IMG/VR virus record: IMGVR_UViG_2778261171_000002
From: a virus
Lineage: Duplodnaviria; Heunggongvirae; Uroviricota; Caudoviricetes
Reading direction: 5' to 3' (one strand)
DNA length: 18,784 nt
A program made the translations under genes and the position numbers. Shown here in pieces: positions 9,221 through 16,385 of this stretch. The notes beneath the pieces were generated by a model that made no database searches, was not told the DNA's origin, and was given only the letters and a program-made list of their open reading frames with translations. Position 1 is the first letter of the stretch. Each line of letters starts with the position of its first letter.

Positions 9221-10403
9221 CGGAGGGTTTCGTGGTCATGTTCATCGGTGTGAGATAGACATCACCACCGGGACGCGGATTCATATCTTCCAGGTCGCGG
9301 CAGTCATTGGGAGAGTAAATTCCCCAATTGATCCCGGTAGCGTAGGCTTCAAAACGGGACTTCATATCCCCGCGCAGTAAGGCCCCGGCGTTAAATTTGG
9401 CGTAATAAACGCCCTGCTTACTTTTTCGTACCAGTCCGGTGTTGATCCGCTGCTCAATGCGGGTCAGATACGGCACCAGTGAATAGTTGATAAATCCCAG
9501 CCCCAGCTCTTCGATATTGTTGAAGGTGGCGCGATCGGTGTTCTGCACCATGTGCAACGGCACCCGGAACAGACGACAGATTTCTTCAAGCTGAAACTTG
9601 CGGGTTTCCAGGAACTGGCTGTCCTCGGCGTTCAGCGCCATCGACTTCCAGTCCAGCCCCATCTCAAGGATCATCGGGCGGTGAGCATTGCCAAGCCCGG
9701 TGTGACGCTCCTCAAAATCTTTCTTCAGGCGCTCATAAGCCTGATCTGACAGCGTCTGCTCTGTACGCAACACACCCGACGTCACCGCGCCATTGCTGAA
9801 CAGTCTGGCCCCGTGCTCTTCGGTCGCAGCTGCCAGCGATATTGCCTCGCGGGCATAGGCGATGGGATTCAGCCCCACCAGACCGTCCAGCGTCAGCGTG
9901 CGCACATGCCAGATATCTTCCTGGCTCAGTACATCCGTAGAGCCGTCCGGGAATGTGACCTGATAGACCGGCTCCCAGCTACTGTTAAGCTTCGGTACCA
10001 CACAGCCGGGATCGACGGGCAGCAGTTCAGCCACTTCGCCAAATGCTTTCACTTTGTAGGCGTAAAAGTTTCCCCGCAGGCACAGACAGGTGACCACCAG
10101 CTCCCAGAACTCCTGCGGCGTCATATAGCCATTGGGATGCGTGGAGATCAGCTTATGCAGACGCTCGCCGGTGGCTCTCTGTTTCAGGCTGCCGTTCAGG
10201 TGATACAGATTGCAGGGCAACATCCCGACCGACTCTGCCAGCACCCTGACGCAGGAAAAAACCGCCGTCAGTCGCATGGCCCGCTGGCTGCTGATCTGCT
10301 TTCCGGTATAGGTGTCGTAGGACAACCCGATAGCATCCGCCAGCTCTGCTGGCGTGGTCACCGGTGCGTCACTTTTTCGTTGAAATAATCCCGAAAAGAA
10401 CAC
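9162..10403 (-). CDS. Portal protein, HK97 family (413 aa)
   Basis: About 410 aa protein between terminase and protease; acidic C-terminus. Confidence 0.85.
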   Translation of the reverse strand: MFFSGLFQRKSDAPVTTPAELADAIGLSYDTYTGKQISSQRAMRLTAVFSCVRVLAESVGMLPCNLYHLNGSLKQRATGERLHKLISTHPNGYMTPQEFWELVVTCLCLRGNFYAYKVKAFGEVAELLPVDPGCVVPKLNSSWEPVYQVTFPDGSTDVLSQEDIWHVRTLTLDGLVGLNPIAYAREAISLAAATEEHGARLFSNGAVTSGVLRTEQTLSDQAYERLKKDFEERHTGLGNAHRPMILEMGLDWKSMALNAEDSQFLETRKFQLEEICRLFRVPLHMVQNTDRATFNNIEELGLGFINYSLVPYLTRIEQRINTGLVRKSKQGVYYAKFNAGALLRGDMKSRFEAYATGINWGIYSPNDCRDLEDMNPRPGGDVYLTPMNMTTKPSDGSKAGKQKDNANADETTS

Positions 10404-10585
10404 TATTTACCTCCGCCGACAGACGACTGTGTACGGTCGAGATATCGCGCCACCAGCCACGACCAGAACAGGCACAACGCCCCGGCAACAACAAACCCCG
10501 CCGGGGGATAAATCAGCCAGGCACCATACGCCAGCAAAAGCGCCCCCAGCACGCCCACCAGAGGCGCGAGAATCAGCATGATCAT
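10403..10585 (-). CDS. Small two-helix membrane protein (60 aa)
   Basis: Two hydrophobic segments ([23 protein letters not shown] and [16 protein letters not shown]); wedged between large terminase and portal. Confidence 0.4.
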
Positions 10586-10596
10586 AATTACCTCAG

Positions 10597-12330
10597 TTAA
10601 AGCGAGCGGATCCCATAGGACTCAATGTGGTCAGACAACGTGTCTTCTTTCTCGTACAGCATGGCTCTGCCAACCGCCATAATCAGCGCAACTGCACCAT
10701 CGATTTTGTTTTCCGCCTGCTCTTTGACGGGCTTCACCACATCATCGTTACCCGGAATGGTTTTGCCGACCACGTTGCCGATACACCAGGTCATGATGGG
10801 ATTGCCATCATGATGAAAGCGCCCCGATTCAATTGCCGCTTCCAGCTCTTTCATCGGGTCGGACATGTTGGTGTAGTTCTGAATGATAGTGACGGGATTC
10901 AGGTCTTCATCAGCAAGGTCATGTGACAACCCGGTCGCCCCGAAGGGGTCGATGGGTGACTCACTGACCGGGCTGATTTTGTTCGCCGCTTTGGCCTCCT
11001 CGAGGATGTAGCGATAATCCACCTCCGCACCATCGGTAACGGTCAGAACGCCCATTTCCACCCATTTCTGAAAGCGTTCGGCTGTCCGGCGATCTTCATT
11101 TTTCTCGACGCTGTACACCGTGTCATACGGTACCCAGAAGCGCGGAGCCACACTGTAGTAATGCGTTTTACCGTCAATCTCGCGGGTATAAAGTCGCGCC
11201 ATGCTGTTCATATCCAGCTTACGCGCCAGGTCAAAGGCCAGAATGCACGGTTGCCCCTCGAACTGTTCAAGGGTCAGTGATTTATCCTCGCAGCTCTGCC
11301 AGCTCACCAGGTTGAAATACGCCGAACGCGCCGACACCCAGATATTGAGGTGTTTTGTTTTAAAGACGTTTGCCAGACGGGCGTTATTTTTCGCACGCTG
11401 CTGCTGACTTAACAAAAATTCGCGATAAACCGACACGCCAATATTCGGGTTAGCTTTTTCCAGCACCTGCGGGTCGGTCCAGTCATCGCCTTCGTCAACG
11501 GTATAGATGATCCCGAACAGTTCATCGTTGGGTACCGAACCGTTGAGCATCTCGATAACTTCCCGCCGCTTGTCGTAGCACGGCCCCTCAATGTTGTACC
11601 CGGCGGTGGTGATGGCCCACATCAGTGGCTGACGTCGCGCGCCCATCCCGGTAAGCATCGTGGTATAAAGCGCATCGGTGGCGTGCTCGTGATATTCATC
11701 CACCACGGCACAGTGGGGTGATGAACCATCACCGGGGTTACCGATCAGCGGTTCAAACCGCGCGCCATCCTCCGGACGGTTCATGTTTGAGGCGTTAACC
11801 TCAATCCCGAACGCTTCCGTCAGCATGGGTGTGCGTTTACACATCAGTCGCGCCGGGCGAAAGACTTCCCACGCCTGTTTCTCTGTCGTGGCACCGGAAT
11901 ACACTTCCGCGCCAAACTCGTTATCACAGGCAAAACAATACAGGGCAACACCGGCAGAGATTGCCGATTTGCCGTTCTTACGGGGGATTTCGGTATACAC
12001 CTCCCTGAAGCGGCGCAGCCGGGAGCCTTTATTGACCCAGCCAAACGCACAGCAGATCACAAAGAGCTGCCACGGTTCCAGCGTGATGGGCATCCTCTTG
12101 AATGCCCACTCCCCCTTGGTGTGTGGCAACAGCTGAATAAATTTCGCGGCCCGTTCAGCCAGGTCCTTGTCGAAGCGGTAACGAAACGACTTACTTTTTT
12201 CCGCCATCAGGTCATCAAGATGGCGCTGGCAGGCCTGAATCACAAACTGGCAGGCCACAATCTTTCCGCGCACGACATCACGGGCATACTGATTGGCAGC
12301 ATTTACGTTGGGGTAAGATTTCCGGCTCAT
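10597..12330 (-). CDS. Terminase large subunit (577 aa)
   Basis: Walker A-like PRKNGKS motif; size and position downstream of the small subunit with a 4-nt overlap. Confidence 0.9.
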
Positions 12331-12830
12331 GATTCGATGATTTTCAGAAACTGGTTAGTGGCTTTCTTCTGCCCCGCCAGGCCAATCAGACGCTGGCGGC
12401 TGCTGGGGTCGAGTCCGAGCATTGCCCCCGTGCTGCTCATCTCGGACTCCTGTTCTTTCTTGGCGGTCAGCTCCGGATTTTTGACCATGCCACCCATTGC
12501 ACCGGTGATGGTGTTGCCCTGTCTGGCAATATTTTTCACGGCACGCCGCCAGAACTCGTAGGCCACGCACCACCGCTCAAGCACCGCGAGGTCAGTCACG
12601 CACAGCAGGCCCTGACCGCAGAGTTCTTTGGTTGTCAGTTGCCACATGATCGTGGCGAGAGGGAGATCTTCTTCAGCGAACCACTCCGGTGGCTCAACAC
12701 CTTTGATGGGCGTAAAAACAGGTTCATCTTTATTCAGGGCTCGCTTGCCGGGGTTTCCGGCCAGCGCCTTGCGCGCCGTTGGCTTGGGGCGACGCCCGGA
12801 ACGCCCCGCCGTTCCAGCCATATGCGGCAC
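12327..12830 (-). CDS. Terminase small subunit, P27 family (track start GTG; likely ATG start at about 12821)
   Basis: N-terminus [15 protein letters not shown] characteristic of P27-family small terminases; adjacent to HNH and large terminase. Confidence 0.8.
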
Positions 12831-12871
12831 TCCTGGTTAAATTTCATTTTTCGCGGGTATAAAAAAACGAT

Positions 12872-12920
12872 GGGGCGGGCAGTCCGGAAGACGTCAGGCC
12901 GCAGGGATTTGACCCGCCCC
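12872..12920. promoter_or_regulatory. Candidate cos / packaging-recognition region (8-bp inverted repeat GGGGCGGG ... CCCGCCCC)
   Basis: Inverted repeat arms separated by about 33 nt in the 116-bp gap between the HNH gene and the small terminase gene. Confidence 0.3.
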
Positions 12921-12946
12921 TCCCCTCAGGCAGTTGAGAATCATTA

Positions 12947-13297
12947 TCACTTCAACCGTTCACGGGCCGTCTTCGCCTTATGACACGGCCAGCACAGACT
13001 CTGCAGATTACAGTCGGCATCAGTGCCGCCATGCGCTTTAGGGATGATGTGGTCAACGGTTTTCGCCTCACGTACCACACCACCACGCAGACATAACTGA
13101 CACAGGCCTTTGTCACGCTTCAGTACACGTTCACGGATAGCATCCCATTTCGAACCGTAGCCGCGCTGATGACGGGACTGGCCTGGCTTGTATTGCCTCC
13201 AGCCTTCGCTTTTGTGGCTTTCGCAGTAGCCTGACGGGTCTGTGGTGGTATGGCGGCAGCCACGAACACGGCAGGCTTTTGGGATTCGTGATGGCAT
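12947..13297 (-). CDS. HNH endonuclease (116 aa from ATG at 13297; the track ORF extends to a TTG at 13396)
   Basis: Cys-rich zinc-finger-like N-terminus, HNH core DHIIPKAHGG...N...LCWPCH; GGAG Shine-Dalgarno before the ATG; sits next to the terminase as in HK97-type cos phages. Confidence 0.85.
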   Translation of the reverse strand: MPSRIPKACRVRGCRHTTTDPSGYCESHKSEGWRQYKPGQSRHQRGYGSKWDAIRERVLKRDKGLCQLCLRGGVVREAKTVDHIIPKAHGGTDADCNLQSLCWPCHKAKTARERLK

Positions 13298-13417
13298 ATG
13301 TACTCCAATGAAGAAGCCACCGACATAGCCTCCTCCATTCATCGTGAAACTATTTTCATCTACCCAGTAATGAATTCTTTGTAGAGTTGTGATCAATACA
13401 ACTCACTAATGGAGAGG

Positions 13418-13439
13418 CTTGTCCAACACGTTGGACAAG
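13418..13439. promoter_or_regulatory. 22-bp near-perfect palindrome CTTGTCCAAC-AC-GTTGGACAAG, candidate operator
   Basis: 10-bp perfect inverted arms with a 2-nt spacer in the divergent intergenic region between the HNH gene and the plus-strand small ORF and bor. Confidence 0.4.
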
Positions 13440-13519
13440 TTTCCTGTTTGATTTACTGGACACTATAGAAGGACAGAATGCCTTCATCACTCGAATAACA
13501 TCAATTAAGGAGGTTCAAC

Positions 13520-13642
13520 ATGTTTCATTCCACAAATCATCAGGCTGTAATTATGGCTGCATCAGCTTGTGCCACAGACCTTTTCCGCTTCACTTTGAGC
13601 CTGATTCATTTCTACCTGACCGGCTCGCCTCTATCTTTTTAA
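13520..13642 (+). CDS. Small hypothetical protein (40 aa) with a near-consensus Shine-Dalgarno
   Basis: AAGGAGG 6 nt upstream of ATG; ORF MFHSTNHQAVIMAASACATDLFRFTLSLIHFYLTGSPLSF; same strand as and upstream of bor. Confidence 0.4.
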   Translation: MFHSTNHQAVIMAASACATDLFRFTLSLIHFYLTGSPLSF

Positions 13643-13822
13643 TCCCCGCTTTATCCAAATTGCATTGCCAGAATGCCGACAACAGACTGACATTCAAATC
13701 CTGACTACCTCCAATAGTCTGACCGTACACCTATATAGTTTTAATTTTCATCAATCCATTTAACTATCGTTTAATTGTTGTCACATAGGATTCTGCCGTT
13801 TTTAACAATGCAGGATAATAAG

Positions 13823-14116
13823 ATGAAAAAAATGTTGTTTTCTGCCGCTCTGGCAATGCTTATTACAGGATGTGCTCAACAGACGTTTACTGTTGGAAAC
13901 AAACCGACAGCAGTAACACCAAAGGAAACCATCACCCATCATTTCTTCGTTTCGGGAATTGGACAGGAGAAAACTGTTGATGCAGCCAAAATTTGTGGCG
14001 GCGCAGAAAATGTGGTTAAAACAGAAACCCAGCAAACATTCGTAAATGGATTGCTCGGTTTTATTACTTTAGGCATTTATACTCCGCTGGAAGCGCGGGT
14101 GTATTGCTCACAATAA
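13823..14116 (+). CDS. bor: Bor lipoprotein (97 aa; the track ORF starts upstream at 13775)
   Basis: MKKMLFSAALAMLITGCAQQTF with lipobox LITGC; near-identical in memory to lambda Bor; opposite strand to the lysis genes as in lambda. Confidence 0.9.
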   Translation: MKKMLFSAALAMLITGCAQQTFTVGNKPTAVTPKETITHHFFVSGIGQEKTVDAAKICGGAENVVKTETQQTFVNGLLGFITLGIYTPLEARVYCSQ

Positions 14117-14147
14117 TTGCATGAGTTGCCCATCGATATGGGCAGCG

Positions 14148-14609
14148 CTATCTGCACTGCTCATTAATATACTTCTGGGTTCCTTCCAGTTGTTTTTGCA
14201 TAGTGATCAGCCTCTCTCTGAGGGTGAAATAATCCCGTTCAGCGGTGTCTGCCAGTCGGGGGGAGGCTGCATTATCCACGCCGGAGGCGGTGGTGGCTTC
14301 ACGCACTGACTGACAGACTGCTTTGATGTGCAACCGACGACGACCAGCGGCAACATCATCACGCAGAGCATCATTTTCAGCTTTCGCATCAGCTAACTCC
14401 TTCGTGTATTTTGCATCGAGCGCAGCAACATCACGCTGACGCATCTGCATGTCAGTAATTGTCGAGTTCGCCAGCTTCAGTTCTCTGCCATTTTTGTCGC
14501 GCTGGGCTTTGTAGGTAATGGCGTTATCGCGGTAATGATTAACAGCCCATGACAAGCAAACGATGATGCAGATAACCAGAGCGGAAATAATCGCGGTTAC
14601 TCTGCTCAT
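14148..14609 (-). CDS. Rz: Rz spanin, inner-membrane subunit (153 aa)
   Basis: N-terminal transmembrane segment and coiled-coil body; lambda Rz-like sequence; follows R with a 4-nt overlap. Confidence 0.9.
14207..14389 (-). CDS. Rz1: Rz1 spanin, outer-membrane lipoprotein (60 aa), embedded in Rz in the +1 frame
   Basis: Lipobox VVVGC and proline-rich [15 protein letters not shown]; entirely nested inside Rz. Confidence 0.85.
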
Positions 14610-15695: not shown

Positions 15696-16385
15696 TTAAT
15701 CCATTTTTGCAATACTTTGCTGTGAAAATGTCGTCTTTTGTTTTGAACGTGCTTTCGTTAAAAGCAATAAAGCTTGGCTATCAAGCTGTAGAAAAATGTG
15801 CTTCATTGCAACCCAGCGTTCAGTGAATGTCTCAGACCAGTTTTTTGATGTCACTCCCACCAGTGATGCCAGCTCCTGGTATTCATAGGTCTTACGCCCT
15901 GCCAGCTCGTTCTTCACATCCTGTGCCGCCAGCCAGATCAACTTCTTCAAACGTTCCAGTGTTTTACCTGCAATTTTCCTGGTACCCAACAGAGTCTTAA
16001 ACTCGCTCCATGCCCACTGCGTTATGGTGACCTGATGTTCCCAGCGAACACTTTCGCTGTAACTCCACAGCAACCACGCTTTCTGATGTTCTTCGAGAGA
16101 CAGAACCGCGCGGCGCCATGACGAGGTTGAGAACTCAACCTGGCTGACCAGTGCAATGGATGAACCTTTTGCGTACGACTGCTTACCAGAAATCGGCGGA
16201 TTATCCAGCGTAATCATCCTGCCCGTTACCTCATCCAGAATGCGCGGCTTCTTTCGTTTATATGTACCAGTATCAAATTGTGCATGCTCCAGCCAGGCTT
16301 CAAGCTGGCCTTTCGTTGCTCCGCTCAAATCAGCAGTAGCCACAATGAGTTGCTCGCGGACATACTGTAAATATTGGGTATTCAT
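15696..16385 (-). CDS. Late-gene antiterminator Q (229 aa), assigned by position
   Basis: Located between the nin genes (rusA, ylcG-like) and the lysis cassette, followed by a promoter/terminator-like region; its start overlaps the ylcG-like stop (ATGA). Confidence 0.6.
   Translation of the reverse strand: MNTQYLQYVREQLIVATADLSGATKGQLEAWLEHAQFDTGTYKRKKPRILDEVTGRMITLDNPPISGKQSYAKGSSIALVSQVEFSTSSWRRAVLSLEEHQKAWLLWSYSESVRWEHQVTITQWAWSEFKTLLGTRKIAGKTLERLKKLIWLAAQDVKNELAGRKTYEYQELASLVGVTSKNWSETFTERWVAMKHIFLQLDSQALLLLTKARSKQKTTFSQQSIAKMD

Follow-up and report, generated by a model that had tools for sequence, protein, structure and literature searches.

Gene order around the HNH–terS gap

The stretch of DNA analysed here (the window; 18,784 nt, IMG/VR record IMGVR_UViG_2778261171_000002) is an E. 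coli prophage of the SfV/SfI/SfII/SfIV group. Its late region is 96.7–97.4% identical to that group, and the segment from the HNH endonuclease gene through the adjoining gap to the small terminase gene (terS) shows 94–98% DNA identity to these phages and others. The best E. coli chromosomes match at 97–98% identity across 92–95% of the window, and at least 80% of the window is covered in 77 genomes. The late operon lies on the minus strand, phage sense running toward lower window coordinates, and its order is Q antiterminator, holin, an endolysin-sized ORF, Rz, a plus-strand bor/iss gene, HNH, the gap, terS, terL, portal, S78 protease and major capsid. The ORFs for HNH, TerS, TerL, portal, protease and capsid are uninterrupted. 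The genes and signals that frame the gap are:

15696..16385, minus strand: Q antiterminator gene, at the phage-sense start of this order
between holin and Rz, minus strand: endolysin-sized ORF with no Pfam match; its E. coli counterpart carries the annotation GH24 glycoside hydrolase
14148..14609, minus strand: Rz gene of the late operon
12947..13297, minus strand: HNH endonuclease gene (116 aa; Pfam HNH, 5.3e-15), homologue of SfV orf53, phiP27 L34 and HK97 gp74
12830..12834, minus strand: Shine-Dalgarno sequence AGGAG of terS, read directly, 8 nt before the ATG at 12821
12327..12821, minus strand: terS, small terminase gene (164 aa, P27 family; Pfam Terminase_4, 2.5e-21)
10597..12330, minus strand: terL, large terminase gene of HK97 type (577 aa; Pfam TerL_ATPase and TerL_nuclease)

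The HNH protein matches HK97 gp74 at 3e-10 across 46 aa in BLASTP and the HNH endonuclease structure PDB 5h0m at 3.8e-12. TerS has 665 homologues, named 'P27 family' in their sources, and TerL is 26% identical to HK97 gp2 over 522 aligned columns (E = 1e-29). The synteny is general across Enterobacterales: an HNH gene lies upstream of the site discussed below in 18 of 18 related loci in which this could be tested.

The first-pass annotation had described a 116-bp gap, 12831–12946, flanked by HNH and small terminase genes. The Pfam matches bear out both flanks, and the gap is real; its extent was wrong. The longest terS ORF would start at a GTG at 12830, whereas the start used in SfV is the ATG at 12821, and the methionine it encodes is invariant among homologues; the gap is therefore 12822–12946, or 125 bp. 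Two features remarked on earlier are present within it. One is a perfect inverted repeat with 8-bp GC-rich arms, GGGGCGGG at 12872–12879 and CCCGCCCC at 12913–12920, separated by 33 nt; the other is an A-tract, A7 at 12861–12867.

Three further elements of the neighbourhood deserve mention. Between Rz and HNH, at 13775–14116 on the plus strand and thus opposite to the late operon, lies a bor/iss-type lipoprotein gene (Pfam Lambda_Bor, 1e-30), whose counterpart in E. coli EC02 is annotated by PGAP as 'increased serum survival lipoprotein Iss'. A palindrome with 13-bp stems, GAGGCTTGTCCAAC ACGT GTTGGACAAGTTTC, at 13414–13443 (plus strand) and followed by a T-rich tail, lies between the divergent starts of HNH and bor/iss; the terminator scan called it on the plus strand, yet no plus-strand gene lies upstream, and it could be an operator or an antisense terminator. 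Between terL and portal, a 60-aa ORF at 10403–10585 (minus strand) has no Pfam match, is annotated as YmfR in E. coli EC02 by PGAP, and is conserved in the phage group.

Position of the cohesive end

When both termini of SfI virion DNA were sequenced by run-off and compared with the prophage, 10 nt were missing, 5'-TGCCCGCCCC-3', and these were taken as the cos cohesive end (PMC3636060). The same 10-mer occurs once in the window:

12881..12872, minus strand: 5'-TGCCCGCCCC-3' in phage sense, identical to the SfI cos determined on virion DNA; it consists of the proximal arm of the inverted repeat plus two bases

Three other phages place an end at the same point. In phiP27 (AJ298298) the homologous position carries a misc_feature, 21806..21815, labelled 'cos-site', with the sequence CGCCCGCCCC. 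For Edwardsiella phage EPP-1, whose authors describe the genome as 'corrected using PhageTerm' (PMC11043334), the deposited sequence ends in ...GTAC TGCCCGCCTC and starts at the base homologous to +1. The right end of HK97 aligns without gaps from a G-run to its last 10 nt (GGGGGGGGATCAAATC-21 nt-GAC CGCCGCCAAA), with 26 of 54 positions identical, a score equalled in 9 of 5000 shuffles, and the HK97 record ends at the aligned position. The deposited SfI record agrees as well, its first base being homologous to 12871 and its last to 12872. Since these four records (SfI, phiP27, EPP-1 and HK97) agree, the cut would fall at a single position, and +1 of the mature genome would be 12871 in the window. 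The placement of cos in SfV and phiP27 follows GenBank features and the account given in the SfI paper.

Some deposited coordinates differ from this position. In the linear SfV and SfIV records the first base lies 17 nt upstream of +1 as placed by SfI, EPP-1 and HK97 (the ends of SfV U82619.2 correspond to 12888/12889 in the window), so that the ends of these records are seemingly not physical termini. The SfII paper labels bp 59–125 as cos, which corresponds to 12888–12822. Both the SfV record start and the SfII label look like conventions rather than mapped ends.

We infer a 3' overhang, with the sense-strand nick between 12872 and 12871 and the nick in the complementary strand between 12881 and 12882, because the SfI run-off reads left a 10-nt gap, as expected of recessed 5' ends, rather than an overlap, and because HK97 likewise has 3' overhangs. 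The HK97 overhangs are given as 10 nt (PMC9410871, Figure 1 legend; PMC11331095), although PMC9410871 has 10 nt in one passage and 12 nt in another.

For the window itself, what is shown is the identity of the sequence, where it lies and how far it is conserved; the physical ends are shown in its relatives. Taken together they make it highly probable (roughly 0.9) that the gap holds the cos of a temperate myovirus, SfV/SfI/SfII-like and integrated in E. coli, with an HK97/P27-type packaging module (HNH, P27-family TerS, HK97-type TerL). The first-pass annotation had placed the genome ends in this gap and named comparison with HK97- and P27-like cos sites as a check; that comparison, with the homologous phiP27 10-mer and the gap-free HK97 alignment, indicates that its inference was right, and narrows it to the nucleotide. 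The locus is the cos already published for the SfI/SfV/P27 group and can be classed more widely as of HK97 type, so that the call is correct but ordinary.

Conserved blocks at fixed spacing

To define the footprint of the site, the region upstream of terS was aligned for 19 loci from different Enterobacterales species (TerS 73–98% identical), together with phiP27, a Klebsiella phage and HK97. The diversity in this set comes from genome contigs; the relatives among viral contigs were all 99–100% identical, too close to serve for footprinting. Identities below are to the window across 16 loci, and the neutral reference is the third codon positions of terS, at 53% identity in the same loci. Positions are relative to the cut, in phage sense:

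12902..12924, minus strand: upstream block, -53..-31, GGGAGGGGCGGGTCAAATCCCTG (G-run plus TCAAATC), 86% identity
12886..12901, minus strand: spacer, -30..-15, 54% identity, which is the synonymous-site level; constant in length, free in sequence
12882..12885, minus strand: GGAC, -14..-11, directly 5' of the cohesive end, 89% conserved as G[G/T]AC
12872..12881, minus strand: cohesive 10-mer, -10..-1, 81% identity
+1..+6, minus strand: spacer, 52% identity
12837..12865, minus strand: downstream block, +7..+35, TTTTTATACCCGCGAAAAATGAAATTTAA, 97.6% identity, taking in most of the A7 run at 12861–12867

From the upstream block to the cut there was not one insertion or deletion in 21 loci and HK97. 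The upstream block is unchanged in phiP27, a phage with a TerS only 49% identical to that of the window. The Providencia and Morganella loci have an insertion of about 40 nt before terS, and the downstream block stays at the cut site rather than at terS; it is thus part of cos and does not belong to the translation signals of terS.

The cohesive 10-mers fall into two classes. Class 1, TGCCCGCC[C/T]C, is found in the window, SfI, EPP-1 and loci of Serratia and Citrobacter. Class 2, CGCCGC[C/T]T[C/T]A, occurs in loci of Klebsiella, Enterobacter, Providencia and Morganella and is HK97-like, being closer to the HK97 end CGCCGCCAAA. Class 2 ends go with AAAG or AGAG in place of TCCG before G[G/T]AC.

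These data bear on whether the gap might be an ordinary intergenic spacer that contains a repeat by chance, the phage packaging by the headful (pac) mode or being a defective prophage whose site is never used. The repeat taken alone is within chance expectation, a perfect inverted repeat of at least 8 bp arising in 114 of 1000 dinucleotide-preserving shuffles of the gap (11.4%). Genome annotation is likewise silent: of 40 hits to a 92-nt cos core sampled across the ranking of E. coli matches, 39 had no feature under the match, and the weakest, a partial match, lay in a hypothetical-protein gene. Against this, the cohesive end is identical to one determined experimentally in SfI and has recorded homologues at the ends of three other phages, the blocks are 81–98% conserved while the spacers between them sit at the neutral 52–54%, and the structural and packaging ORFs are intact. 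A chance spacer is therefore very improbable. The non-random feature of the gap is its conservation across relatives, not the repeat.

The inverted repeat

The first-pass annotation had presented the repeat as a recognition feature. Its proximal arm, 12872–12879, is part of the cohesive 10-mer itself, and its distal arm, 12913–12920, lies inside the upstream conserved block. The terminase or the HNH protein could recognize an element of this kind, binding it as a symmetric site or as a cruciform, and cos would then be defined by it. Consistent with such a role, the repeat is perfect over 8 bp, one arm falls within the cohesive end, both arms lie in conserved blocks at constant spacing, and an upstream G-run facing a C-rich cohesive end is seen in all relatives, HK97 included. 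The complementarity of the arms, however, is not maintained: one arm has changed without compensation in the Klebsiella, Enterobacter, Morganella, Providencia, Atlantibacter, Kluyvera and Citrobacter relatives and in HK97. In an alignment of 18 sequences, 75.7% of cells were standard pairs in the true register, which is only modestly above the 62–67% obtained when the register was slid by 1–3 columns, and is matched by the 77.1% found in column shuffles; there was no excess of compensatory change. The geometry also fits poorly, the centres of the arms being separated by 41 bp and the nicks by 10 bp. We consider recognition of the repeat as such unlikely.

The repeat and the adjacent T-run (A7 as read on the plus strand) might alternatively form an intrinsic transcription terminator on the minus strand, ending transcripts of the HNH or lysis genes before terS. 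Minus-strand RNA would have a GC-rich stem, GGGGCGGG/CCCGCCCC, which can be extended and is followed after 4 nt by U7, and the SfIV paper shows predicted Rho-independent terminators on its map, their positions not being given in the text. The loop would nevertheless be 33 nt long, the consensus terminator scan did not call the repeat, and folds of the minus-strand gap were no more stable than shuffles (z = 0.06 for RNA, -0.50 for DNA). Covariation is also missing: besides the pairing frequencies given above, the two central pairs are broken in 10–11 of the 18 relatives, and the RNAalifold consensus of these relatives reaches -3.95 kcal/mol with zero covarying pairs. The T-run, moreover, belongs to the block that stays with the cut site. 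With a Q antiterminator gene upstream, read-through of a terminator at this place would be expected in late transcription. Overall a terminator seems improbable. As a candidate it was rejected, the repeat failing to give the stable, conserved, GC-rich hairpin with a short loop and a U-run that identifies intrinsic terminators. An Rfam E-value scan of 12300–14200 found nothing in the gap and a single chance miRNA match outside it.

With cos as the preferred reading of the gap, the repeat is probably not itself the signal and is rather a by-product. A perfect repeat is a feature of the SfV/phiP27 subset, where it arises because the G-run block faces a C-rich cohesive end.

Packaging model and candidate terminase sites

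The cos reading suggests the following course of packaging. During late growth TerL, helped by the HNH protein, would cut concatemeric DNA at 12881..12872 with a 10-nt stagger around 5'-TGCCCGCCCC-3'. The mature genome would extend from 12871 toward terS, and its other end would carry the 10-mer, unpaired, as a 3' overhang. The homology of both proteins leads one to expect that TerL cleaves and that HNH stimulates it, and HK97 gp74 (HNH) stimulates cos cleavage in vitro (PMC9410871; PMC11331095).

In HK97 the TerS nonamer binds 15 bp, +15..+29 (CTAACCCGATTTTTT), where Arg128 reads the C:G pair at position 21 and the adjacent A-tract is recognized through its DNA shape; once bound at this site, TerS makes the motor stall at cos (PMC11331095, PMC9410871). 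The invariant downstream block of the window contains TATACCCGCGAAAAAT at +11..+26. From this similarity of motif and from the conservation of the block, the most likely candidate for the TerS recognition site is the downstream block, 12837–12865, so that the small terminase would bind 7–35 nt inside the left end, at ACCCGCG between A/T tracts. The parallel with HK97 is not strict. ACCCG with its A/T tract lies inside the left end in both phages, at +18 in HK97 and at +14 in the window, that is 4 bp nearer the cut, and EPP-1 has GACCG instead.

The G-run/TCAAATC block, 31–53 nt before the cut, would sit at the genome end packaged last and is probably a second recognition or positioning element. 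It is possible, and we propose it with some doubt, that this block (12924–12902) represents an uncharacterised second cos element of HK97-type packaging, whose 28-nt spacing from the cut site is invariant from P27-family phages to HK97. It may act as a cosQ-like termination signal, or may be where TerL or HNH docks so as to be in place for the second nick. In the HK97 papers (PMC11331095, PMC9410871) only the downstream TerS site is mapped. To judge from the alignments, what is modestly new here is the architecture of three blocks at constant spacing, common to HK97 despite small terminases unrelated in sequence.

Comparison with other cos systems

SfI, SfV, SfII and SfIV share with the window the HNH-cos-terS-terL order, the TGCCCGCCCC cohesive end and, as far as the terS start, the same downstream block. 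Compared with SfI, the window has a few substitutions in the part of the gap nearest HNH (86.5% identity over that stretch), without substantive difference in the cos core. SfV differs in that its record annotates no bor/iss gene between Rz/Rz1 and orf53, where the window has one. The Stx2e phage phiP27 has the identical upstream block, ACCCGCGAAA downstream, the inverted repeat, a P27-family TerS and an HNH gene; it differs in the first base of the cohesive end (CGCCCGCCCC, TGCCCGCCCC in the window) and in details of the A/T tracts.

The likeness to HK97 extends to the HNH-cos-terS-terL order, a homologous TerL, a C-rich cohesive 10-mer following GAC, and a G-run with ATCAAATC at a distance of 28 nt from GAC, at which point HK97 has GGGGGGGGATCAAATC. 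HK97 has TGAC where the window has GGAC, a different cohesive end (CGCCGCCAAA) and no perfect inverted repeat. In the HK97 record about 320 bp separate the end of the HNH gene from the right end, as against about 65 bp in the window, and sequence similarity between the TerS proteins of the two was not detectable.

Phage lambda cos (cosQ-cosN-cosB) follows the same general logic, in which the nicking site is flanked toward terS by the region that TerS binds and on the opposite side by a conserved element. Its overhang is 12 nt and 5', whereas that of the window is 10 nt and, as argued above, probably 3'; lambda has no HNH partner, and its TerS is Nu1 rather than a P27-family protein. The IHF consensus WATCAANNNNTTR had no match with one mismatch or fewer in 12822–12946. 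A lambda-type cos was rejected on these grounds: no IHF consensus in the gap, a TerS of the Terminase_4 P27 family, and a 10-nt cohesive end.

Distribution and use in annotation

Of 5426 complete E. coli genomes, 1632 contain the 92-nt cos core, in up to 6 copies each. The practical value of locating it lies in annotation, as it fixes the start and end of the linear map for a very common type of E. coli prophage. It also sets the direction of packaging, from 12871 toward terS, which matters for predicting flanking genes that could be co-packaged, or satellites that could borrow this cos. The cross-family footprint, three blocks at constant spacing common to HK97, yields testable candidates for the TerS site and for a second element, at a time when structural biology of the HK97 system is under way.

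Sixteen of the places in E. coli where the cos core occurs lie on plasmids, which raises the question of whether such copies mark phage-plasmids, or satellites that borrow cos. The core, with one substitution, is also found on a 5.6-kb contig labelled MAG: Bacillota bacterium (JAEWTL010000102.1), which carries an HNH-cos-terS arrangement of Enterobacterales type and a TerS 98% identical to that of the window; its place in a Bacillota assembly is most likely due to contamination during binning.
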